From positions 209,741 to 273,740 of the forward strand of contig DATLYW010000012.1 in the NCBI GenBank assembly GCA_035574315.1: DNA of 64,000 nucleotides, read 5' to 3'. The position numbers were made by a program, and so were the translations under genes. How positions within the stretch are numbered: position 1 is the stretch's first letter; the number at the start of each line of letters is the position of its first letter. This stretch comes from Candidatus Zixiibacteriota bacterium (GTDB taxonomy: Bacteria > Desulfobacterota > Binatia > UBA9968). Positions 6,969-54,398 of the stretch are shown piece after piece. Under the pieces are notes generated by a model. That model was given only the letters and a program-made list of their open reading frames with translations. It was not told the origin of the DNA and made no database searches.

Positions 6969-9416
<2,448 letters not shown>

Positions 9417-22083: not shown

Positions 22084-23169
22084 ATGAGGCGCCGGATTCC
22101 AGCCGTCGCCGCCGCGCTGGCGTTCGCCGCCGCGCCCGCTTTTTCGCCTGCCGACGATACCATCAAGGTCCTGTGGCGCGAGGCTCAACCGCCGGCGGAA
22201 GAAAACGAGCTCGACCCGCTCAGCCGTGCCTACATGCGGCTCGCAAGCTCGGCGCGCCCCGCGGTCGTGCAGGTGCGCGTCCTCCTCGAACCTTCCGGCA
22301 AATCCCCGTCGGCGGATTCCCGCACGGGGAGCCGCGGGTCGGGATTCATCATCAACGCGGCAGGTTATATTCTGACCGCCCAGCACGTCGTCGACCGCGC
22401 GAAAGAGATCGAGGTGCGGCTCCCCGACATGCAGCGACTCCCCGCACGCGTGGTGGCCGCCGACGCCAACGTCGACCTGGCCTTGCTGAAGATCGAAAGC
22501 GAGCGTGAGCTGCCGGTGCTGGCGCTCGGCGATTCCGACGAGATTCGAGTCGGGCAGCTGGTCGTGGTTTTCGGATATCCTTTCGGCCGCGAGAGCTCGA
22601 TGAGCCTCGGTATCGTGAGCCGGGCGGGGCGCACCTATCCGGATTCGGCAAGCTACGAGCTCATCCAGACGGACGCGGGCGCGTATGCGGGAGGCAGCGG
22701 GGGGCCGCTGCTGAACAGCCGCGGCCACGTCGTCGGCATGATCACGATGGCGTCGGAGCGAGGCAACATGGGCTTTGCCTTGCCGATCAACGTCGTCAAG
22801 CGCGTCCTCCCTCGGCTGCTCAACGGCGAGAAGCTCGTCTGGGGCTGGCTCGGTCTGCAGATGACCGAGGTCCCCCTGAGTCAGGCCAAGACGCTCGGCC
22901 TTTCGCGTGTGAAAGGGGTGCTGGTGAGCTCGGTCCTGCCGGGGCAGGCGGCGGAACGGGGAGGCCTTCTTTCCAGGGACGTCATTCTCGCGGTCAACGG
23001 CCTGCAGGTGGACAGCCCCCGCGACGTCCATCGCCTGATCCGGGGGCTGGAGGCAGGCCGGGAAGTAAGGCTCACGGTCTTGCGGAACGGCGAGACCCTG
23101 CACCTTTCGGTGCCCCTGGGACCGAAGCCCGCCGCGCCCGCGAACGAGGGCAACGCCGGGCTGGACTAG
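22084..23169 (+). CDS. HtrA/DegP-like S1C serine protease with one PDZ domain
   Basis: Signal peptide, GSGFII, TAQHVV (His), DLALLKI (Asp), GGSGGPLLN (Ser), C-terminal PDZ. Confidence 0.88.
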   Translation: MRRRIPAVAAALAFAAAPAFSPADDTIKVLWREAQPPAEENELDPLSRAYMRLASSARPAVVQVRVLLEPSGKSPSADSRTGSRGSGFIINAAGYILTAQHVVDRAKEIEVRLPDMQRLPARVVAADANVDLALLKIESERELPVLALGDSDEIRVGQLVVVFGYPFGRESSMSLGIVSRAGRTYPDSASYELIQTDAGAYAGGSGGPLLNSRGHVVGMITMASERGNMGFALPINVVKRVLPRLLNGEKLVWGWLGLQMTEVPLSQAKTLGLSRVKGVLVSSVLPGQAAERGGLLSRDVILAVNGLQVDSPRDVHRLIRGLEAGREVRLTVLRNGETLHLSVPLGPKPAAPANEGNAGLD

Positions 23170-25616
23170 CGCTGGTCCCCGTCCTCCGCCGTCGCCCCAG
23201 CCGGACTGAGCTTGCGCAGCTGCTCGGCGTAGCGCTGGAGCTTTTTTTCCACCCTCCCGTTGACGGAATCTTCCGGATAGCGACCGTCCGGGCCCCGCCG
23301 GCCGGCCTCCACCCCGGTCAGCACCTCGATTCCCTCGTCCACGGTGGCGACGGCATAGATGTGGAACCTGCCAGCTCCCACGGCCTCGACGACGTCGGGC
23401 CGCAGCATGAGGTTGCGCAAGTTCGCGCGCGGCATCAGCACTCCTTGCGTTCCGGTAAGGCCTTTGATGCGGCAGACGTCGTAGAAGCCCTCGATCTTTC
23501 GGTTGATCCCGCCGATCGCCTGAATCTCGCCGTTCTGATTGACGGACCCGGTGACCGCGATGCCCTGGCGGATCGGCAGCTCGGCAAGGCTGGAGAGAAT
23601 CCCGTACAGCTCGGTGGAGGATGCGCTGTCGCCGTCGACGCCGTCGTAGGACTGCTCGAAGCAGATGCTGGCCGAGAGCGAGAGCGGCCGGTCCTGCGCG
23701 TACCTGCTTCCGAGATAGCCGCCGAGGATCAGTACCCCCTTGTCGTGCGTCTTGCCGCTCAGCTTCGACTCCCGCTCGATGTTGACGATTCCGTCCCGCC
23801 CCATGAACGTCTTCACCGTGATGCGCGACGGCTTGCCGAAGCTGAAATCGCCCATCTGGTAGATCGCGAGGCCGTTGACCTGCCCCACGGCCGCGCCGTC
23901 GACGTCGACGAGCAGCGTGCCTTCGGCGATCAGCTCCTGCAATCGCGTTTCGACCAGGTTTAAACGAAACGTCTTTTCCGCGACTGCACGCTCGACATGC
24001 GAGGCGGAAACCAGCTCCGCGCCCTCCCTGCGGGCCCAGTAGTCGGCCTCGACGAGCAGGTCCGCGATCTCGCTGAAGCGCGTGGAAAGCTTGTACTGGT
24101 CCTCGACCACCCGGGCGCAGTGCTCGATCACCCGGGCGACGCCGCCGCTGTCCAGATGGCGGAGCTTCTCGCGCGTGCAGTAATCGCTGATGAAGCAGGC
24201 GAACGCGACGATGTTTTCCTGCGAGCGGTCGATCCGGTAGTCGAAATCCGCCTTGACCTTGAAAGTTTCGCGGAAATCCGGATCGAGCGTCGCCAGAGTC
24301 CGATAGAGCGCCGGATCGCCGATCATGATCACCTTCGTGTCGGTCGGGATCGGCTCGGGCCGCAGCCCCTGCGGCGGCGCCCAGCCGAAGAAGGTCGCCG
24401 GCTCCTCGACCCGCAGCTCGCGGTTCTTGATCACCCGCTGCAGCGCCTCCCACACACCCGCGTTCGACAGCACGTCACGGTCGTAGAGCACGAGGTAGCC
24501 CCCGTTGGCCCGGCTGATCGAGCCCGCCTTGATCAGGGTGAAATCGGTGACGTACCCGCCGACGATCGGCTTCTTTTCGACGACCCCGAAGACGTTGTGA
24601 TAAGTCGGATTGGTTTCCACGATAATCGGCGGTCCCTGCGTCTCGCTGTTGTCGACGAAGACGTTGACGCGGTACGGCAGAAACGGATCGGCCGCCGCCT
24701 CGCCGAATCGCGGCCCGGGCGCGGTCGACGGCGCCGGCGGTTCGGTCCCCTTGAAGCGGCCGAGGTTTCCGAGAATGTGGTCGCGGACCGCTTCGAGATA
24801 GCTCAGCACTCTCGGGTGATCGCGGTATTTCTCGCGCAGCTCGGCCAGCGGCAGGCGCACCAGGTACTGCCCGGCCTCGCTCTCGAGCGCGTTCAGCTTC
24901 TCGGCGATTTGCCGTTCCAGCTTCTTCCCTTCACGCAGCGTCGCCTCGACCTTCTCCTCGATCTCGCGCCGCTTCTCCTCGAGCGCCTTTCTCTCGGCCG
25001 CGGAGAGCGCCAGATACTCCGACTCCTGCATGGGCTTGCCGTTGCGGGTCGCCAGCAGCACCATTCCCGAAGGGGTCATCCGAAGGGCGAAGTCGTGGCG
25101 GCGCGCTTCCTCGACCAGCGCGGCCATCATCTCCTGCTGCTTGTTCTGGATCTCCTCGACCATCGCCTGGCGCTGCTCGGCGAATTCTTCGCTCTCGAAA
25201 GTCTTCTTGGCCTCCCGTTTGAGGTGCTCCACGAGCTGCTCCATGTCGGCCTTGAGCCTCTTGCCCCAGCCCGCGCGAACCCTGAGCACCTGCGGCCGGT
25301 CGGGATCGGCGAAATTGTAGACGTAGCACCAGTCGTCCGGCGTGGCGGCGTCCTGGCCGGGAGCGGCCCTTTCGGAAGTGACCTTCCTGAGGAACGCCTT
25401 GATGATGCTGGTCTTTCCGGTTCCCGTGAGCCCGGTGACGAAGATATTGAAGCCCGGCTTGTTGACACCCAGGCCGAACTCGATCGCGCGCATCGCGCGG
25501 TCCTGCCCGATGAAGTCCTCCAGCGGATTCATGTCCGCGGTGCAGCTGAAAGGCAGGAACGAGAGATCGCACCGCCAGCTCAACCGATCCGCCGACACCT
25601 CGAACGCGTTGGCCAT
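23166..25616 (-). CDS. Lon-like protease, LonC/LonB (AAA_32) type
   Basis: FIGQDRAMRAIEFG, GLTGTGKT, coiled-coil insert, Lon protease dyad DGDSAS and GGINRKIEGF. Confidence 0.9.
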   Translation of the reverse strand: MANAFEVSADRLSWRCDLSFLPFSCTADMNPLEDFIGQDRAMRAIEFGLGVNKPGFNIFVTGLTGTGKTSIIKAFLRKVTSERAAPGQDAATPDDWCYVYNFADPDRPQVLRVRAGWGKRLKADMEQLVEHLKREAKKTFESEEFAEQRQAMVEEIQNKQQEMMAALVEEARRHDFALRMTPSGMVLLATRNGKPMQESEYLALSAAERKALEEKRREIEEKVEATLREGKKLERQIAEKLNALESEAGQYLVRLPLAELREKYRDHPRVLSYLEAVRDHILGNLGRFKGTEPPAPSTAPGPRFGEAAADPFLPYRVNVFVDNSETQGPPIIVETNPTYHNVFGVVEKKPIVGGYVTDFTLIKAGSISRANGGYLVLYDRDVLSNAGVWEALQRVIKNRELRVEEPATFFGWAPPQGLRPEPIPTDTKVIMIGDPALYRTLATLDPDFRETFKVKADFDYRIDRSQENIVAFACFISDYCTREKLRHLDSGGVARVIEHCARVVEDQYKLSTRFSEIADLLVEADYWARREGAELVSASHVERAVAEKTFRLNLVETRLQELIAEGTLLVDVDGAAVGQVNGLAIYQMGDFSFGKPSRITVKTFMGRDGIVNIERESKLSGKTHDKGVLILGGYLGSRYAQDRPLSLSASICFEQSYDGVDGDSASSTELYGILSSLAELPIRQGIAVTGSVNQNGEIQAIGGINRKIEGFYDVCRIKGLTGTQGVLMPRANLRNLMLRPDVVEAVGAGRFHIYAVATVDEGIEVLTGVEAGRRGPDGRYPEDSVNGRVEKKLQRYAEQLRKLSPAGATAEDGDQR

Positions 25617-46368: not shown

Positions 46369-46794
46369 ATGGCCGCATCCGAACGGGATGTCATGATCTG
46401 GCGCCGTGCCGCGGACCTGCTCCAGCAGGCCGAGCGCATCCATAGAAATTTTCTGCAGCTCGCAACCGCAGTCCAGTACCGGGCTCCCCAGGGCCGACTC
46501 ACCTCGTGGTCGCCGCCGGTCAACGTGGTCGAGACCGAAGAATCGCTCTGGGTCATGGCCGCCCTGCCCGGGGTGGCGGCGGAGCGGGTCGACATCCGGC
46601 TCGAAGGATGCGAGCTTCGCATCGCGGGCGAACGTCCGTTGCCGAAGTGCTGCCGGGACGGAGAGCTGAAGGTCTGGGAGGTGCCACTCGGCCGCTTCGA
46701 GCGGCGCCTCAGCCTGGTCCGACATCAGAATCCTCTGAAAATGGGAGAGATCGTCTTCCAGAACGGATTGCTGATCGTCGAGCTGAAAAAATAA
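46369..46794 (+). CDS. Hsp20/alpha-crystallin family small heat-shock protein
   Basis: W.PPVNVVETE, ALPGV, L.IAGER, GRFERRL, GLL.V.LKK. Confidence 0.88.
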   Translation: MAASERDVMIWRRAADLLQQAERIHRNFLQLATAVQYRAPQGRLTSWSPPVNVVETEESLWVMAALPGVAAERVDIRLEGCELRIAGERPLPKCCRDGELKVWEVPLGRFERRLSLVRHQNPLKMGEIVFQNGLLIVELKK

Positions 46795-46799
46795 AGGCC

Positions 46800-49202
46800 A
46801 TGGCGGGATCAGCGGAACCCCTGAAATCCACGCCCCGTCTTCACGTGCCGCCCGGGGCGCTCGTCATCCTGCCCCTCCGCAATTCGGTGCTCTTCCCTTC
46901 GACCGTGATGCCCTTTATCATCGGCCGGCCGGCGAGCCTGCGGGTGGTCGAGGAGGCTGTCCGGCAGGAATTGACCATCGGCTTCGTCACTCAGCGGGAC
47001 CCGCGGGTCGAAACGCCGCGGCCCGAGGACCTCTATCCGGTCGGCACGGCCGCCGGAGTGCTGCGCATGCTCACGCTGCCCGACGGCCAGAGACAGGTGA
47101 TCGTGCAGGGGCGCCAGCGCTTCGGGATCGCCGAGTTCCTCGAAACCGATCCGTTCCTGATCGCGCGCGTCACGATGATCGAAGAGACGGTTCCGACCAC
47201 CAAGGAGTTCGAGGCGCGAGTGCTGCACCTGCGCCAGCTGGCGGCGAAGTCCCTCTCGCTGATGCCGCAGCCGATGAGCGAGCTGATCTACACCATCGAA
47301 GGCATCCAGGACCCCCGCGTCCTGATCGACATCATCGCCTCCACCCTCGACCTGCCGCCAGCGGAAAAACAGGAGATCCTGGCGACCTTCGACGTGGAGG
47401 CGCGCATCCAGAAAGTCTCCGAGAAGCTGGCGCGCCAGATCGAGCTGCTCGAGCTGACCAAGAAAATCGGCGAAGAGACCAAGGAGTCGATGGACCGGGC
47501 ACAGCGGCAATATTTCCTCCGCGAGCAGCTCAAGGCGATCCAAAGAGAGCTCGGTGAAGAAGACGGCAGGAGCGTTGAAATCGAGGAGCTGCGAAAAAAA
47601 ATCTACGAGGCCAAGATGCCTCCGGAAGTGGAGCGAGAGGCGCTTCGGGAGCTGGCGCGGCTCGAGCGCATGCCGGAGGCCGCCGCCGAATACTCGTCGC
47701 TCAGGACCTACCTCGACTGGCTGATCGAGCTGCCGTGGAACGTCACCACGCCTGAGCAGATCGATTTGGCGCGGGCGCGGGCGATCCTCGACGCCGACCA
47801 CCACGGGCTGGAAAAGGTGAAGCGCCGCATCATCGAGTTTCTCGCCGTGCGGAAGCTCAAGCCCGAGGGAAAGAGCCCCATTCTGTGCCTGGTCGGTCCG
47901 CCCGGAGTCGGGAAGACCTCACTGGGGCAGAGCATTGCACGCGCCATGAACCGCAAGTTCGTCCGCCAGAGCCTCGGCGGCGTGCACGACGAGGCCGACA
48001 TCCGCGGCCACCGGCGCACCTACGTCGGCGCGTTGCCCGGCAACATCATCCAGGGGATACGCAAGGCCGGCACCAAAAATCCCGTCTTCATGCTCGACGA
48101 GATCGACAAGCTCAGCGCGAGCTTTCACGGCGATCCGTCCGCGGCGCTGCTCGAGGTCCTCGACCCGGCGCAGAACGCCACTTTCCAGGATCACTACCTC
48201 GGCGTGCCCTTCGACCTCAGCCAGGTCCTTTTCATCGCGACGGCGAACGTCCTCGACACGATCCCCGGACCCCTGCGCGACCGCATGGAGGTGCTGGAGC
48301 TCCCGGGCTACATTGAGGAAGAGAAGCTCGCGATCGCCAAAGGATACCTGATTCCGCGCCAGATCGCCGAAAACGGCCTCAAGCCCGACGACGTGGTCTT
48401 TACCGACGAGGCCGTCCGCGGGATCATCCGCTTCTACACCCGGGAGGCCGGCGTGCGCCAGCTCGAGCGCGAGCTGGGAAGCATTTGTCGCAGCGTGGCG
48501 ACCCGGATCGCGGAAGGCTTCCAGGGAAAAGTGACCGTGACGCTCGAGTCGCTCCCGAGCTACCTGGGGCCGCACAAGTTCTTCAACGAGATTGCGCTCC
48601 GCACCAGCCTTCCGGGCGTCGCCACCGGTCTCGCCTGGACCCCCTTCGGGGGCGACATCCTGTTCATCGAGGCGACCAAGATGCCCGGCGAAGGGCATCT
48701 GATCCTTACGGGCCAGCTCGGCGAGGTCATGAAAGAAAGCGCCCAGGCCGCCCTGAGCCTCGTCAAGTCGCGCGCCGAGGCCCTGGGAATCGATCCCGAT
48801 ACCTTCAAGCGCCACGATCTGCACGTTCACATACCCGCCGGCGCGATTCCCAAGGACGGGCCGAGCGCCGGCGTCACGCTGTTCGTCGCCCTTGTCTCCC
48901 TGCTCACCGGCCGGCGGGTGAGCAAGGACGTGGCCATGACGGGGGAAATCAGCCTGAGAGGCCTGGTGTTACCGGTGGGAGGAATCAAGGAGAAGGTCCT
49001 GGCGGCCAAGCGGGCGGGCATCCGCTGTGTTCTGCTTCCCGACCTCAACCGCAACGACATGGAGGAGATTCCTTCCTCGGCGCGCGAGGGTATCCGGTTC
49101 GAGTTCCTCAAGACCGTGGACGAGGCCCTGCAGCTGGCGCTGGAACCCGAAGTCGCGGAAGAGCCCACCGAGGAGCGGCCCGAGGCGCCCCCGCTCGCTT
49201 GA
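46800..49202 (+). CDS. lon: ATP-dependent protease La (LonA)
   Basis: LON N-domain (LPLRNSVLFP), GPPGVGKTS, LDEIDK, PKDGPSAG, GGIKEKVLAA. Confidence 0.97.
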   Translation: MAGSAEPLKSTPRLHVPPGALVILPLRNSVLFPSTVMPFIIGRPASLRVVEEAVRQELTIGFVTQRDPRVETPRPEDLYPVGTAAGVLRMLTLPDGQRQVIVQGRQRFGIAEFLETDPFLIARVTMIEETVPTTKEFEARVLHLRQLAAKSLSLMPQPMSELIYTIEGIQDPRVLIDIIASTLDLPPAEKQEILATFDVEARIQKVSEKLARQIELLELTKKIGEETKESMDRAQRQYFLREQLKAIQRELGEEDGRSVEIEELRKKIYEAKMPPEVEREALRELARLERMPEAAAEYSSLRTYLDWLIELPWNVTTPEQIDLARARAILDADHHGLEKVKRRIIEFLAVRKLKPEGKSPILCLVGPPGVGKTSLGQSIARAMNRKFVRQSLGGVHDEADIRGHRRTYVGALPGNIIQGIRKAGTKNPVFMLDEIDKLSASFHGDPSAALLEVLDPAQNATFQDHYLGVPFDLSQVLFIATANVLDTIPGPLRDRMEVLELPGYIEEEKLAIAKGYLIPRQIAENGLKPDDVVFTDEAVRGIIRFYTREAGVRQLERELGSICRSVATRIAEGFQGKVTVTLESLPSYLGPHKFFNEIALRTSLPGVATGLAWTPFGGDILFIEATKMPGEGHLILTGQLGEVMKESAQAALSLVKSRAEALGIDPDTFKRHDLHVHIPAGAIPKDGPSAGVTLFVALVSLLTGRRVSKDVAMTGEISLRGLVLPVGGIKEKVLAAKRAGIRCVLLPDLNRNDMEEIPSSAREGIRFEFLKTVDEALQLALEPEVAEEPTEERPEAPPLA

Positions 49203-49212
49203 GGCCGCGCCG

Positions 49213-51861
49213 TCAGGCGTGGGCGTCGGCCCAGTTCCGGGCCACGTGGATTTCCACCGCGAGCCCGCAGCGCAGCTCCGCCGCGTGTGTCATCTCCTGC
49301 TCGATCAGCGCGCGCGCCCGCTCGAGCCTTTCCTCGGGAATCTCGAACACCAGCTCGTCGTGCACGGTGAGAAGCATTTTCCCGACCGGCTCGCGCCGCA
49401 GCGCGGAGTCCACGCGGATCATGGCCTGCTTCAGGATGTCGGCGGCGCTTCCCTGGATCGGCGTGTTCAGCGCCATGCGTTCTCCCAGCGCCCGCAGGCG
49501 GAAATTGGCCGAGTTGAGCTCCGGCAGGTAGCGCCGGCGCCCGAACATGGTGGTGGTGAAGCCGTTGATCCTGGCCTGCTCGACCTGCGTTCGCAGAAAG
49601 TCCTTGACCTTCGGAAACTGGGCGTAATAGGCGTCGATGAACTCCTCCGCGACGTCGAGCTCGACGCCCAGGCGCTGCGAGACGCCGAACGCCGACATGC
49701 CGTAGGCGATCCCGTAGGAGAACTGCTTGACGGCGCTGCGCATCTCGGGGGTCACTTCGGAGAGCGCCACGCCGTAGACCTTGGCGGCGATCGCCGCATG
49801 AAAGTCGCGGCCGTGCGCGAACGCCTCGAGGAACTGCTCGTCTCCCGAGAGATGCGCCAGCACGCGCAGCTCGATCTGCGAATAATCCGCCGACAGCAGC
49901 ACGTGGCCCGCCGGCGCGATGAAAGCCCGGCGGATCTGCCGGCCGGTCTCGCCGCGAATCGGAATGTTCTGCAGGTTGGGAGCGGTCGAAGACAGCCGGC
50001 CGGTCGCGGCGGTCGTCTGCTCGTAGGTGGTGTGGATGCGCTGCGTGCGCGGGTCGATCAGGCCGAGCAGCGCTTCGGTGAAGCCGGTCCGCAGCTTCGC
50101 CACCTCGCGGTACTCGAGCAAGCAGCCGACGATCGGATGGGCGCCTGCGATTTTTTCCAGCTCCGCCGCGTCCGTCGAGTACCCGGTCTTGATCCTCTTG
50201 GTTTTGGGCAGCCCGAGCTTCTCGAACAGAATCCGCTGCAGCTGGGGATTCGAGTTGACGTTGAACCGCTCTCCCGCGAGCTCCTGGACCCTTTGCTCGA
50301 GCGCGCTCATTTTCTCGCGGAACTCCGCGTTGAGCTTCTCGAGATAAGCGCGGTCCACCAGAATCCCCTCGTGCTCCATGCGTGCCAGGACCCCGACCAG
50401 GGGAAACTCGAGGCGCACGGCCAGCTCCCAGAGCTCGCGGCTGCGGAGCTGGCTTTCCAGGACCCCAGCCAGCGAGCGAACCGCAACCGCCTCCCGGCAG
50501 ACGCGGCCTCGCTCCTGCTCGGGGAACGCGAGGGAGGGTTGCTCCGCGGCGCTCCCGACGCCTTCCTCCTCGAGCGTAACGCCCAGATAGCGGCCGACCG
50601 TTTCCCCGAGGCTGTAACCTCGTGCCAGACCCGGCTCGAGCAGATAGGCAGCGATCTTGGTGTCGCAGCGCAGTCCCCGCAGCTCGATGCCCGCAGCCAG
50701 CGCCGCGCGGCAGAGAGGCTTGGCGTCGTGCGCGATCTTTTCCCGGCGCGGGTCCTCGAGAAAATCCTTCAGCCCGGCGAGCGCCTCGGGAAAACGCGCG
50801 ACGCGCGCTTCGCCCGCGGCACTGGAGGCCGCGATCCAGTTCGCGCTCCAGGCGAGCGCGACCGGGCCCTCGCCCAGCTCGCGGCCCGGGCCGAGATCTC
50901 CGACCGATCGGAGCTCCACCGAATCCGAAACGTCCGGGGCCGGATCCTTGAGCTCCTTAAGGCGCTCGTGCAGCGTGCGAAACTCCAGCGCCGTAAAGAG
51001 CCTGCGGACCTCCTCGTCGTCCCACGGCTCGAGGCGCAGGCTCGCCGGCTCCGTCTCCAGCGGCACGTCGTCCCGAAGCCGCCCCAGCTCCTTGTTGAGG
51101 CGCACCTGCTCCGCGTGCGCCTTGACCGCGTCCCTGAGCTTCGGGGTCAGCTCGTCGGCATGGGCGATCACCTGCTCGATGTCGCCGTACTTGGCGATCA
51201 GCTGCGCGGCGGTCTTGTCGCCGATCCCGGGAACGCCCGGGAGATTATCCGAGCTTTCTCCCTTGAGCGCGACGAAGTCGATCCATTTTTCCGGCGGCAC
51301 GCCGTACCGCTCGGCGACCCCGGCCGCGTCGTAGCGGGTCACGTCCGTGATCCCGCGCCGCGTCATCACTACGGACACGCCGTCGCGCACGAGCTGCAGG
51401 ATGTCGCGATCGCCGGTCACGATCACCACCTCGGAGCCCTCCTCGCGACAGCGGCGCGTCAGGGTGGCGAGCAGATCGTCCGCCTCGTAGCCTTCGAGCT
51501 CCAGTGCGGGAATCCGCAGCGCCTGGAGCACCTCGCGGATGAGCGGCAGCTGTTGCCGGAAGGCGTCGGGGGCTTCCGCCCGCCCGGCCTTGTAGTGCTC
51601 ATAGCGCTCGAGCCGAAACTGCGGCGCTCCTTTATCGAAACAGACCACGACCGCGTCGGGTTGCTCCTCGGCCATGAGCTTGATGAGCATCGAGGTGAAG
51701 CCGTAAACCGCGTTGGTGACCTGGCCCGAAGAGGTAACCAGCGTCTCCGGCAGGGCGAAAAAGGCGCGATAGGCGAGCGAATGACCGTCGAGCAGGAGGA
51801 CCTTGCGCCGCCCCTTCGCGCTTCCTGCCGCAGGCGTCGCGTTCTTGTTCTTTGCGGCCAC
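49213..51861 (-). CDS. polA: DNA polymerase I
   Basis: 5' nuclease (LLDGHSLAYRAFFA, EADD, GDRD, GESSDNLPGVPGIG.KTA), motif A DYSQIELR, motif B KQFSYGIAYG, motif C VHDEL; the 3'-5' exonuclease domain looks degenerate. Confidence 0.97.
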   Translation of the reverse strand: MAAKNKNATPAAGSAKGRRKVLLLDGHSLAYRAFFALPETLVTSSGQVTNAVYGFTSMLIKLMAEEQPDAVVVCFDKGAPQFRLERYEHYKAGRAEAPDAFRQQLPLIREVLQALRIPALELEGYEADDLLATLTRRCREEGSEVVIVTGDRDILQLVRDGVSVVMTRRGITDVTRYDAAGVAERYGVPPEKWIDFVALKGESSDNLPGVPGIGDKTAAQLIAKYGDIEQVIAHADELTPKLRDAVKAHAEQVRLNKELGRLRDDVPLETEPASLRLEPWDDEEVRRLFTALEFRTLHERLKELKDPAPDVSDSVELRSVGDLGPGRELGEGPVALAWSANWIAASSAAGEARVARFPEALAGLKDFLEDPRREKIAHDAKPLCRAALAAGIELRGLRCDTKIAAYLLEPGLARGYSLGETVGRYLGVTLEEEGVGSAAEQPSLAFPEQERGRVCREAVAVRSLAGVLESQLRSRELWELAVRLEFPLVGVLARMEHEGILVDRAYLEKLNAEFREKMSALEQRVQELAGERFNVNSNPQLQRILFEKLGLPKTKRIKTGYSTDAAELEKIAGAHPIVGCLLEYREVAKLRTGFTEALLGLIDPRTQRIHTTYEQTTAATGRLSSTAPNLQNIPIRGETGRQIRRAFIAPAGHVLLSADYSQIELRVLAHLSGDEQFLEAFAHGRDFHAAIAAKVYGVALSEVTPEMRSAVKQFSYGIAYGMSAFGVSQRLGVELDVAEEFIDAYYAQFPKVKDFLRTQVEQARINGFTTTMFGRRRYLPELNSANFRLRALGERMALNTPIQGSAADILKQAMIRVDSALRREPVGKMLLTVHDELVFEIPEERLERARALIEQEMTHAAELRCGLAVEIHVARNWADAHA

Positions 51862-51903
51862 GCGCGTACTCTACCGGTCTGCGGCGCGTCCGGCAACGGC
51901 GCT

Positions 51904-53436
51904 TCAGAGAACCTCTTGCGGGAGCAAGGCGGCGGGATCGCGGATTGTCTTGCCCGAGGCGGTCCGGGGCAGCGACTCTCGGATGACGATCCGCTGCGGC
52001 ACCTTGAAGGTCGCCAGATTGGCTCGGAGGAAAGCGAGCAGCTCCTTCTCGGCGATGCGCGCGCCCGGGCGGGGAACCACCGCGGCGCCGATGGTGACGC
52101 CGCGCTTTTCATCGGGAATCGGGAAGACCACCGCCTCCTGCACCTCCGGATAGTTGTAGATCATGTTCTCGACCTCGGCCGGGTAGACGTTCAGCCCCCC
52201 GGTGATCATCATGTCGTCGCGCCGCCCGAGGTGGTAGTAGTAGCCGCTCGGCTCCCGAACGCCGACGTCGCCGGTGTAGAGCCAGCCGCCGCGAATCCGG
52301 GCCGCGGTCGCTTCCGGCTTGCGGAAATAGCCCTTCATCACGTGGGGTCCCCGGGTGATGATCTCCCCGGCCTCCCCGTCGGGCAGCTCGGCGCCGCTTT
52401 CGTCGACGATCTTGACCTCGACCCCCGGAACCGGGCGGCCGATGCTGCCCATCTTCGCCGCCGCCTGCTCGGGCTCTACGATCGTGATCAGCGGCGAGGT
52501 TTCCGTCAGACCGTAGCCCTGGATCACCTTGACGTGGGGCTGGGCGGCGTGAAAGGCCCGAAGCAGCGGCACCGGCACCGTCGTTCCCATCATCGCCGCG
52601 ACGCGGACGCTGCTCGTGTCGTACTCCGCGAGGTTGCGCACCCCGAGCAGCAGCTGAAAGACCACCGGCACGCCTTCGAAGACCGAGATGCGGTGGCGTT
52701 GAATCCCCTCGAGCAGCGCCACCGGATTGAGCTGATCGAAAATCACCAGGGTGTAGCCGCGCACGGCCAGCTCGTTGCAGACGATCGGGCCGACGATGTG
52801 CGACATCGGCAGGACGCAGCCGCGCACCGTGTCCGAATCCGTGATCCCCAGCGCCGCCATCACGCGCGGATACTGCGCCAGGTTTTCGTAGCTCAACACC
52901 ACTCCCTTCGGCTCACCGGTGGTGCCCGAGGTGTAGAGGATCAAGGCGTCGTCCTCCGGGGACGGATGCGGCAAGCGCAGCTCGCCCGCCGGAGTGGCCC
53001 ACCGCCTCTCGAAGCTCCGCTCGCCCTCGCCCTGCACCACCCATACCGGCGCCGCGCCGCCGATCGCCTCCTCGGTTTCCTGAAAGAGCTGGTGCTGGAT
53101 CACGAGGAGCTTCAGATCCGCGTCGCGAAGCACCCCCTGCAGCTCCCGGCCGCGCAGCCGCGCGTCCAGGATGACGGTCACCGCGCCGATCTTCTGCGTC
53201 GCGTAGTAGGCGAGCGGGATCGCGGTGGAGTTCGGCAGGAGCACGCCGACGCGATCGCCCGGGCGGATCCCTTCACGCTGCAAATAACCGGCGAGAGCGT
53301 GTACGCGCCGGTTGAGCTCGGCGAAGCTCAGCGCTTCCTGTTTCGCGACCAGCGCCGTCTTCTGCGGCCGGCGGGCCGCCGTCCGCTCCAGCTCCTCGCC
53401 CGCGAAGAAACCTACTCGATCGGTATCCTTCTCCAT
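51904..53436 (-). CDS. Long-chain acyl-CoA ligase family (class I adenylate-forming) enzyme
   Basis: YTSGTTGEPKG, GYGLTET, WLYTGD, GR.DDM.ITGG.NVYP.EVE, FKVP, PRTASGK. Confidence 0.92.
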   Translation of the reverse strand: MEKDTDRVGFFAGEELERTAARRPQKTALVAKQEALSFAELNRRVHALAGYLQREGIRPGDRVGVLLPNSTAIPLAYYATQKIGAVTVILDARLRGRELQGVLRDADLKLLVIQHQLFQETEEAIGGAAPVWVVQGEGERSFERRWATPAGELRLPHPSPEDDALILYTSGTTGEPKGVVLSYENLAQYPRVMAALGITDSDTVRGCVLPMSHIVGPIVCNELAVRGYTLVIFDQLNPVALLEGIQRHRISVFEGVPVVFQLLLGVRNLAEYDTSSVRVAAMMGTTVPVPLLRAFHAAQPHVKVIQGYGLTETSPLITIVEPEQAAAKMGSIGRPVPGVEVKIVDESGAELPDGEAGEIITRGPHVMKGYFRKPEATAARIRGGWLYTGDVGVREPSGYYYHLGRRDDMMITGGLNVYPAEVENMIYNYPEVQEAVVFPIPDEKRGVTIGAAVVPRPGARIAEKELLAFLRANLATFKVPQRIVIRESLPRTASGKTIRDPAALLPQEVL

Positions 53437-54398
53437 AGCGCAAACGCCCTCTGAAATGGTTTGTACCAGCGGGAAAGCCGCGCCAGCTCGCCGCGGCGCA
53501 GCTCGAGCTTTCCCTGCTGCGTCGCGAGGAACGGATCGATCCTGCCGCAAAAGACCGCCCGCCACCACTCCGCCTTTCCGCCGATCAGGAACTCCCCGTC
53601 GCTCCTCTCGCGCAGACCGCGGATTTCGCCGTGGGCGAAATCGACCGTCCATGCGGCTGCGGTGTCGTCGAGGCGGAGGGTGAGAGAGGTCGTCAGATCC
53701 GTCCGTTCCCCTTCGGCCCGGAATTCCGGGTCGCTGTTGGCGGTCGCGACGAGCGCTTCCATGTGCGCGCGCGAAAACAGCGCGTGTGCCGGTCCCGCCG
53801 AGGCCGGCGGCTCCGCCTCGGCGCCCGCCGACGGCTCTGTCCCGTTCAGGCGCTCGTTGAAGAACTGGCAGCGAACCGCTTCCTCCAGGAGATCCGTGTA
53901 GAGAAAGGCCTCCTCCAGGCTTCTTGCGGCGGCGACGGTACCGTGACCCTTCAGAATCGCGATCGGGCCGTACTTGAGCGCCTCCACCAGCGCTTCAGGC
54001 TCGGTCACGGTCGGCGTTTCCTGCGGGATCACCGGCACGCGGCCGATGGTGTACTTCTCCTCGAAGCTCGCCGGGATGAAATGGCTCCGGGCGAGCGAGA
54101 AGGCCACCACCGCCGGAGGATGCGCGTGAACGACCGCCTGGGCGCCGCACCCCTGATAGACCGCCAGGTGCATCGGCGTCTCGCTCGAGGCGCGGCGGTT
54201 TTTCGCCCGCGTTTTTCCGGTCTCGTCGATGCGCACGAGATCGCGCGGGGTGAGAAATCCGAGCGGGGCGTGCTGCGCGGTGATCAGGAACTCGCGCCGG
54301 CCGAGGCGCCGGCTGAGGTTTCCGCCCCAACCGCTTACCAGCCGGCGCTCGAAGAGAAGCCTGCCCCAGCGGATCATTTCGCGCTCCGCCGCGTTCAC
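53412..54398 (-). CDS. Class II aldolase (FucA/MtnB/Ald2-like) fused to C-terminal SCP2 lipid-binding domain
   Basis: GTG start with GGAGGAG; GGNLSRR, SSETPMH, HAH, GHG; after an Ala/Pro linker an SCP2-like tail (W..VF.G.IDPF.A..QGKL.L..G). Confidence 0.85.
   Translation of the reverse strand: MNAAEREMIRWGRLLFERRLVSGWGGNLSRRLGRREFLITAQHAPLGFLTPRDLVRIDETGKTRAKNRRASSETPMHLAVYQGCGAQAVVHAHPPAVVAFSLARSHFIPASFEEKYTIGRVPVIPQETPTVTEPEALVEALKYGPIAILKGHGTVAAARSLEEAFLYTDLLEEAVRCQFFNERLNGTEPSAGAEAEPPASAGPAHALFSRAHMEALVATANSDPEFRAEGERTDLTTSLTLRLDDTAAAWTVDFAHGEIRGLRERSDGEFLIGGKAEWWRAVFCGRIDPFLATQQGKLELRRGELARLSRWYKPFQRAFALWRRIPIE

Follow-up and report, generated by a model that had tools for sequence, protein, structure and literature searches.

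The polA gene of the window

We analysed the DNA polymerase I gene (polA) at 49213..51861 on the minus strand of a 64,000-nucleotide stretch from an uncultured soil bacterium, Candidatus Zixiibacteriota bacterium. The whole stretch is called the window below, and the organism the host. An earlier note, made from the letters alone, had proposed that this polA was acquired horizontally from actinobacteria. The open reading frame (ORF) starts with GTG, has a stop-free translation, and encodes 882 amino acids (aa), a full-length DNA polymerase I (Pol I) of Actinomycetota origin by profile matches and by the tree described below. In profile searches the window PolA reached 999 bits with the NCBIfam equivalog NF004397 (cut-off 720) and 935 bits with TIGR00593 (cut-off 600), and it matched the Pfam models PF02739, PF01367, and PF00476. 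In HMMER searches its best PDB match was Mycobacterium smegmatis Pol1 (6VDE, 704 bits, residues 9-879), and it scored 597 bits against Taq.

The domains and motifs of the gene, all on the minus strand, were located with residue numbering fixed against the authentic E. coli K-12 PolA, taken from NC_000913.3. The 5'-3' exonuclease or flap endonuclease (FEN) domain spans residues 20-282 (51016..51804) according to PF02739, PF01367, and the E. coli PolA alignment. All nine metal-binding carboxylates of the 5'-nuclease are kept (D25, D76, E126, D128, D129, D151, D153, E202, and D205), with one D-to-E change relative to E. coli. The family-A polymerase domain spans residues 505-879 (49225..50349; PF00476, 502 bits), and its motifs A, B, and C are complete, including the catalytic Asp, the steric-gate Glu, and the O-helix Arg, Lys, and Tyr. 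In the E. coli alignment, motif A (DYSQIELR, 49864..49887) contains the catalytic D659 (E. coli D705) and the steric-gate E664 (E710). Motif B, the O-helix (RSAVKQFSYGIAYG, residues 708-721, 49699..49740), contains R708, K712, and Y720 (R754, K758, and Y766), and motif C (VHDELVFE, 49342..49365) contains H834, D835, and E836 (H881, D882, and E883). The tyrosine that the earlier note had read at the position of E. coli F762 is exactly where it was placed: Tyr716, encoded by TAC at 49714..49716, stands in the F762 column, and HMMER alignments put it opposite Taq F667 and the tyrosine of M. smegmatis (Y741); the corresponding T7 residue is Y526. The N- and C-terminal strings quoted in that note are also present in the translation.

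A vestigial 3'-5' exonuclease-like region (core residues 360-433, 50563..50784) was recognized from the alignment and from Pfam exonuclease models that missed their cut-offs in the window PolA (26.0 vs 27 and 20.7 vs 23.6). The ExoI motif (E. coli D355/E357) is deleted. Together, the deletion and the sub-cut-off scores identify a PolA of the proofreading-dead type, and no proofreading is expected from its sequence. An active 3'-5' proofreading site is kept by only about 42% of canonical Pol I and thus does not define the group (PMC10201439). By its equivalog score, FEN domain, and polymerase motifs, the window PolA belongs to canonical bacterial DNA polymerase I (cluster 1 of PMC10201439). Within that group it is ordinary, of the actinobacterial type that has a Tyr in the O-helix and a dead proofreading domain.

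The host assembly (4.26 Mb, 53 contigs, 98.6% complete) contains a single PF00476 domain, and so no second polA was found in the genome. A tblastn search of the whole host genome with the stand-alone nuclease of relatives, described below, gave no match besides polA. The window polA was the only family-A polymerase gene and the only 5'-nuclease homologue found in the host genome.

PolA and GyrB have discordant relationships

Genomes of the host order were labelled f1 (the host family), f3 (its sister family), and f2 (a further family). The window PolA was 68-74% identical to those of many f1 genomes and 63-66% identical to those of f3, closed genomes included. Identity to eight or nine Actinomycetota genomes was also 63-66%. 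In about 170 other genomes of the host class, which have a different full-length PolA, it was 39-45%. Within a 120-genome Actinomycetota sample the identity to the window PolA graded from 66 through 53 to 39%, and sampled members of class Actinomycetes were at 41-45%.

The vertical control marker was gyrB (6969..9398, minus strand), which is on the same contig as polA and encodes an 809-aa protein of the long type. Identity to this GyrB was 78-86% in f1, 78-80% in f2, 74-77% in f3, and 63-69% in the rest of the host class; Actinomycetota, with a short type of about 685 aa, were at 52-59%. The GyrB of G035, an "uncultured delta proteobacterium" of the same family, was 83-87% identical to that of the window. 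Judged by sequence, this order of similarity is the one expected for a vertical gene. The reading of the genome as one with housekeeping genes of a delta-proteobacterial kind and a discordant polA is therefore supported by the GyrB identities, and by the GyrB tree.

We then compared the two proteins in trees. In the maximum likelihood PolA tree (85 sequences, IQ-TREE, LG+C20 with posterior mean site frequencies, PMSF), the f1 and f3 sequences were reciprocally monophyletic (support 99 and 100) and together formed one clade (97). They were part of a larger clade that also holds eight Actinomycetota (100, stem 0.61) and is nested in Actinomycetota (95). A separate clade (95) was formed by ten native PolAs from the host class, and Myxococcota, Bacillota, and Abditibacteriota stood between this clade and the imported type. 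In the approximately unbiased (AU) test, forcing the host-order PolAs to group with the native-class PolAs cost 245 log-likelihood units (p-AU 6.2e-5). In the GyrB tree the order (100) was placed inside the host class, and Actinomycetota were apart (100). Thus, when PolA was set against a vertical marker, GyrB grouped with its host-class orthologues and PolA did not. In a tree of the 5'-nuclease domain alone, the window type again joined the close Actinomycetota (99), indicating that the whole gene moved. A domain chimera was ruled out by the same result.

Some relatives have unusual PolA ORFs. In G035 (MFD04944; L018, L050/L059) polA is broken, with a longest ORF of 583 aa, and gyrB is in two overlapping pieces; these look like assembly indel errors rather than pseudogenes. 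Two f3 loci, L072 (G154:C1:3525105-3527876) and L073 (G205:C154), have longer PolA ORFs of 936-949 aa. Their match is split into residues of about 6-435 and 440-882, and the first stretch has the lower identity, as if the linker or the vestigial-exonuclease region contained an insertion or had diverged locally.

The native polA survives as a nuclease remnant

In many relatives, comprising part of f1 and all of f2, the only match to PolA was a protein of about 300 aa that corresponds to the N-terminal domain. No PF00476 domain was found in these remnant-only genomes, and both statements include closed genomes. The stand-alone nuclease scored about 300 bits, with 49-52% identity, against the N-domains of native class PolAs, and 200-225 bits, with about 40% identity, against the imported-type N-domain. 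In the domain tree it was sister to the native N-domains (94) and far from a third, Xni-like paralogue. Since both score and tree place the nuclease closest to the native N-domains, it is a relic of the native polA. Where the relic coexists with the import, in ten genomes, it has diverged further, with 50-63% identity to the f2 protein versus 62-73% in relic-only f1 genomes. In one additional genome, G382, it is broken.

The genomes without a family-A polymerase domain include the f2 genomes G019 (closed, 4.46 Mb), G021, G023, G025, and G027 and part of f1 (e.g. L115:1492-2406). The relic-only relatives are free-living and have genomes of 3-8 Mb, and nearly all of them have a family-B polymerase of about 750-800 aa.

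In relatives such as G006 and G009, the relic is flanked on one side by a lipoamide-dehydrogenase-like gene (Pyr_redox) and on the other by an M20 peptidase gene. On host contig C16 (115725-115840), outside the window, the Pyr_redox and M20 peptidase genes are only about 80-110 bp apart and there is no nuclease between them. Because the flanking genes are adjacent and the genome has no nuclease similarity elsewhere except polA, this site is the empty site left by the loss of the relic. Within 1.5-kb flanks, we found no flanking genes common to the stand-alone nuclease and native polA loci, which would have been a sign of truncation in situ. A replacement polymerase was also not found beside the nuclease gene; downstream is the M20 peptidase gene, and upstream in f2 is dnaA.

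The third, remote 5'-nuclease paralogue (Xni/ExoIX-like) is 31-38% identical to the relic and is scattered in the order. One example is G010:C133:1665-2408 (L121); ORFs like it, about 300 aa long, are present in G162, G217, G349, G354, G355, and G359. Further genomes with this paralogue are G373-G377, G380, G382, G383, and G387. In the g16 genomes G375, G376, and G374, it was the only intact 5'-nuclease homologue detected, and G374 also has a decayed relic. The relic-only genomes G005 (L043, C474:8645-9775) and G004 (L044/L045, C102) carry extra divergent family-A polymerase-like ORFs, one of 678 aa (PF00476, 1e-48) and one of 798 aa with weak matches. These ORFs fall outside both the native and the imported Pol I types and may come from mobile elements. 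In G005 there are, in addition, two genes for a family-B polymerase.

Two gene kits in the host order

The distribution of these genes was surveyed in 91 genomes of the host order. Imported Pol I alone was found in 46 genomes, including the host genome and 30 of the 31 f3 genomes (G026 had no match). Another 20 genomes, including all five of f2, have the relic and a family-B polymerase without Pol I. Imported Pol I and the relic occur together in 10 genomes, and the remaining 15 have other combinations. Most genomes thus hold one of two kits. The first would be an "archaeal/eukaryote-like" pair, in which a stand-alone flap nuclease (the native polA relic) works beside a family-B polymerase with no family-A polymerase. 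The second would be the complete Pol I imported from Actinomycetota.

The family-B polymerase domain PF00136 was present in 23 of the 30 genomes without imported Pol I and in 9 of the 61 with it. Fisher's exact test on this complementarity gave p 1e-8 overall and 4e-4 within f1, in a raw test that ignores relatedness. Two things count against this pattern. Many of the surveyed genomes are metagenome-assembled genomes (MAGs) that are 71-100% complete, and some absences may be assembly gaps. Moreover, the complementarity was not significant once relatedness was taken into account (sign test, median p 0.125). Among 10 independent PolA contrasts on a 67-genome GyrB tree, family-B polymerase changed in the opposite direction in about five and in the same direction in about none, and was unchanged in five. 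The direction is consistent, the comparison is underpowered, and an association is not established.

A family-B polymerase occurs together with a native full-length PolA in about 100 of 175 other genomes of the class that were sampled. The family-B polymerase is therefore old in the class, and its distribution in the order reflects loss in genomes that kept the import. On the 67-genome tree the two traits need 13-14 changes each, so either the history was dynamic or MAG gaps and a weak species tree obscure it. We see about an even chance that the two kits are interchangeable ways of maturing Okazaki fragments and repairing gaps, and that they segregate within one order. The relic and the family-B polymerase would then tend to decay where the import is kept, with the host genome as the end state and the genomes holding two or three of the genes as intermediates.

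Origin, direction, and age of the transfer

Of the eight loci from the close Actinomycetota, six have the polA-rpsA(-coaE) gene order, as do most of the other Actinomycetota in the sample; none of the 27 host-lineage loci has it. In the close Actinomycetota, the rpsA that follows polA is of the actinobacterial type, and coaE comes next. With actinobacterial rpsA and coaE on them, these contigs are unlikely to be host DNA that was binned wrongly. The branching of PolA among the eight Actinomycetota roughly tracks their GyrB tree. This canonical context and the GyrB-like branching indicate that polA is native to Actinomycetota but foreign to the host, where the missing polA-rpsA-coaE order is expected for a transferred single gene. 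In addition, the motif-B signature KQFS[YF]GIAYG is common only to f1, f3, and the close Actinomycetota clade.

The GC content of polA (0.675) and its GC content at third codon positions (GC3, 0.87) are the same as those of neighbouring and housekeeping genes, and therefore the transfer is old. Together with the reciprocal monophyly of the f1 and f3 copies, the matching base composition indicates that the transfer took place before f1 and f3 split. It is ancient and common to at least two families, not specific to the host genome.

The proposal of a horizontal acquisition from actinobacteria thus held up in the PolA tree, the AU test, the GyrB control, the donor synteny, and the different native PolA type of the class. 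Very probably, polA is a working canonical Pol I and a whole-gene xenologue that passed from an uncultured, deep-branching lineage of Actinomycetota into the host order, at least into the f1/f3 ancestor, and has since ameliorated, while the native polA was cut to a nuclease and the lineages sorted mostly into two kits. In the sequence of events that we propose, the whole gene would have entered the ancestor of the order, or at least of f1 and f3, and would then have taken on the base composition of its host. The native gene would have been reduced to the stand-alone 5'-nuclease of about 300 aa, and the genomes would have come to hold mostly either the imported Pol I alone or the remnant with a family-B polymerase. 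In the host genome the remnant would finally have been deleted.

Several points weigh against this history. The trees were made with a short ("quick") search, and the node that joins the donor and host clade to its nearest actinobacterial neighbours has a support of only 82. The donor clade, whose eight genomes include the records DASQWC01, JBOGXL01, CAZLKN01, and JBBDRJ01, is labelled at NCBI only as "Actinomycetota bacterium". The species tree was represented by one gene, gyrB, and the GyrB tree puts one f2 genus (g23; G025 and G027) inside f1, beside G006. Either gyrB moved or the family boundaries are soft, and gyrB is to that extent a limited proxy for the species tree. Within f1, the topologies of PolA and GyrB are not fully congruent, and synteny at the polA locus is lacking both between f1 and f3 and among the genera of f1. 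Some of the spread within the order may have been horizontal, rather than a matter of one entry and losses only.

Taken further, the same actinobacterial origin could have been followed by repeated horizontal spread among the lineages of the order, which we regard as possible and rather doubtful. Besides the differing polA loci, this agrees with the presence of PolA needing at least 13 changes on the 67-genome GyrB tree and with genus g18, which nests in the PolA tree among lineages that GyrB separates from it. However, f1 and f3 each have a monophyletic PolA within one joint clade, and the PolA and GyrB trees agree on the groups G003 with G011, G017 with G072 and G211, and G010 with G001. Genomes still holding all three genes fit differential loss, and the count of changes is inflated by MAG gaps and by a species tree that is weak when drawn from GyrB alone.

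A transfer in the reverse direction, from the host order to one Actinomycetota lineage, or from a third source to both, is improbable. The host clade and the eight Actinomycetota are near-sisters and the monophyly of the eight is supported by only 73%, so no direction comes from that node. Against this, the joint clade is nested in Actinomycetota PolAs, the identity gradient within the phylum is smooth, and the Actinomycetota copies sit in the canonical block of their phylum and branch roughly as GyrB does. The host class also has a different native PolA type, of which the order holds the remnant.

We give almost no credence to vertical inheritance with an actinobacterial look produced by fast evolution or convergence in the host order. 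It would fit the orthologues in many relatives and the host-like base composition, but it was refuted by the AU test and by the native remnant, which survives in the order and co-occurs with the import in 10 genomes. The higher identity to specific Actinomycetota than to genomes of the same class and the like placement of both domains also contradict it. The least credible alternative is an assembly or binning artefact that joined actinobacterial DNA to the host contig or binned it there: the assembly is of an uncultured organism and in 53 contigs, but the 277-kb polA contig also carries host-type gyrB, gyrA, and yidC, host genes of equal GC3 flank polA on both sides, and a chimeric contig is excluded by orthologues with 63-74% identity in about 60 genomes of the order that were assembled independently, closed, single-contig f3 genomes among them.

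Under the ancient import of a whole Actinomycetota polA, the imported Pol I would supply primer and flap removal and gap filling, and so lagging-strand maturation and excision repair. Since the relic is deleted in the host genome, the imported enzyme must supply both activities there. From its completeness, and from its being the only 5'-nuclease and family-A polymerase found in the genome, we infer that the window PolA removes RNA primers and flaps and fills gaps like a canonical Pol I.

Tyr716 is not a marker of origin

The earlier note had taken Tyr716 as a pointer to an actinobacterial origin, and this we rejected. Tyr is also found at this position in three of the 10 native host-class PolAs, in Myxococcota, and in Abditibacteriota. 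Within the donor clade, two Actinomycetota MAG loci (L014 and L015) have Phe (KQFSFGIAYG) where their closest relatives have Tyr, and thus the Tyr/Phe state flips over short evolutionary distances.

Tabor and Richardson are said to have shown in 1995 that the Phe/Tyr state at this residue sets dideoxynucleotide discrimination, and in 1996 Mizrahi and Huberts reportedly measured discrimination between dideoxynucleotides (ddNTPs) and deoxynucleotides (dNTPs) for M. tuberculosis Pol I (cited in PMC7102940). By analogy with T7 polymerase, Taq F667Y, and mycobacterial Pol1, Tyr716 should bond the beta-phosphate of the incoming nucleotide, and the enzyme should be poor at rejecting ddNTPs. Such acceptance of ddNTPs has no obvious natural significance. 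In mycobacteria, the tyrosine (Y741 in M. smegmatis, Y737 in M. tuberculosis) hydrogen-bonds the dNTP beta-phosphate, and the Y737F change lowers activity 6-fold (PMC7102940). The position is described as governing dideoxynucleotide discrimination in a paper that finds motif-B position B3 the most variable of the conserved ones and warns against its lone use as a marker (PMC10201439).

Neighbouring genes

The polA gene is about 16 kb from the end of its contig. Upstream is an acyl-CoA ligase gene (51904..53652, minus strand), the last gene of a nucleoside operon. A spacer of 42 bp (51862..51903) separates its stop codon from the GTG start of polA, and a scan for promoters and terminators around polA, including this spacer, found no such site. 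Downstream, a Lon protease gene (46506..49202, plus strand) converges on polA. The acyl-CoA ligase gene was beside polA at none of the 26 other host-lineage polA loci and lon at one of the 26, in G010. The 42-bp distance from the nucleoside operon given in the earlier note is correct. A functional link between polA and the operon was rejected as unlikely, because the adjacency is unique to the host genome and so looks coincidental. Read-through transcription from the acyl-CoA ligase gene into polA is possible in the host genome. The Lon protease is canonical, an ORF of 898 aa with about 120 residues before its TIGR00763 match. A second, distant Lon-related protein of 816 aa is encoded at 23166-25616 on the minus strand, with a weak match to a LonB-related model (115 bits vs a cut-off of 517).

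Comparison with known polymerases

The closest characterized system is mycobacterial Pol1 (6VDE/6VDD; M. tuberculosis PolA). It shares with the window PolA the FEN domain, a vestigial 3'-exonuclease domain without metal ligands, the polymerase domain, and the O-helix Tyr, and within canonical Pol I the two fall in the Actinomycetota branch. The window polA differs in lying in a non-actinobacterial genome, without the polA-rpsA-coaE context. Its motif B reads VKQFSYGIAYG, where the sampled Actinomycetes have IKAMSYGLAYG and M. smegmatis has VKAMSYGLAYG, and its nearest relatives belong to a deep, uncultured clade of actinobacteria rather than to Mycobacteriales. A separate FenA is also present in mycobacteria, whereas the host genome has no second 5'-nuclease. 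Taq Pol I has the same domain order and no proofreading, with a natural Phe where the window PolA has a natural Tyr. Bst Pol I is likewise proofreading-dead. T7 polymerase, in contrast, is of a different PolA subfamily and has an active exonuclease.

The protein of about 300 aa in the relatives resembles FenA and E. coli ExoIX/Xni in being a Pol I-type 5'-nuclease without a polymerase. Unlike Xni, it derives from the native polA N-domain, and the Xni-like paralogue is remote from it in the tree. In insect endosymbionts polA is reduced to its nuclease domain; here the remnant is found in free-living bacteria with genomes of 3-8 Mb. In mycobacteria, where the 3'-exonuclease-like domain of Pol1 is known to be vestigial, the polymerase part can be truncated without loss of viability (PMC7102940).

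A precedent for the loss and replacement of Pol I is given by Aquificae, which lost the canonical enzyme and have a phage-related family-A polymerase instead ("Hot Spring 1" cluster; PMC10201439). As in that case, the native canonical Pol I is gone from the host lineage, which has a family-A polymerase gained by horizontal transfer instead. Unlike in Aquificae, the import is a complete canonical Pol I from another bacterial phylum and not phage-like, and the native gene survives in sister lineages as a stand-alone 5'-nuclease, mostly with a family-B polymerase and without the import. What is new here is the location of an actinobacterial Pol I and the history behind it.

Implications

The window polA is a clean, well-controlled case of the replacement of a core gene across phyla, fixed in a lineage of an uncultured class. 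If PolA were used as a phylogenetic or metagenomic marker, it would mis-assign the host lineage to Actinomycetota. The interest of Tyr716, which is not unusual, is purely practical: it predicts a Pol I that naturally lacks proofreading and accepts ddNTPs. Further work would be best spent on the reading of the order in terms of two kits. Free-living bacteria whose closed genomes hold just the nuclease relic and a family-B polymerase, with no family-A polymerase, are a natural experiment on the dispensability of the Pol I polymerase, in which the family-B enzyme may substitute for Pol I, and the pattern of the kits bears on which enzyme can replace it.

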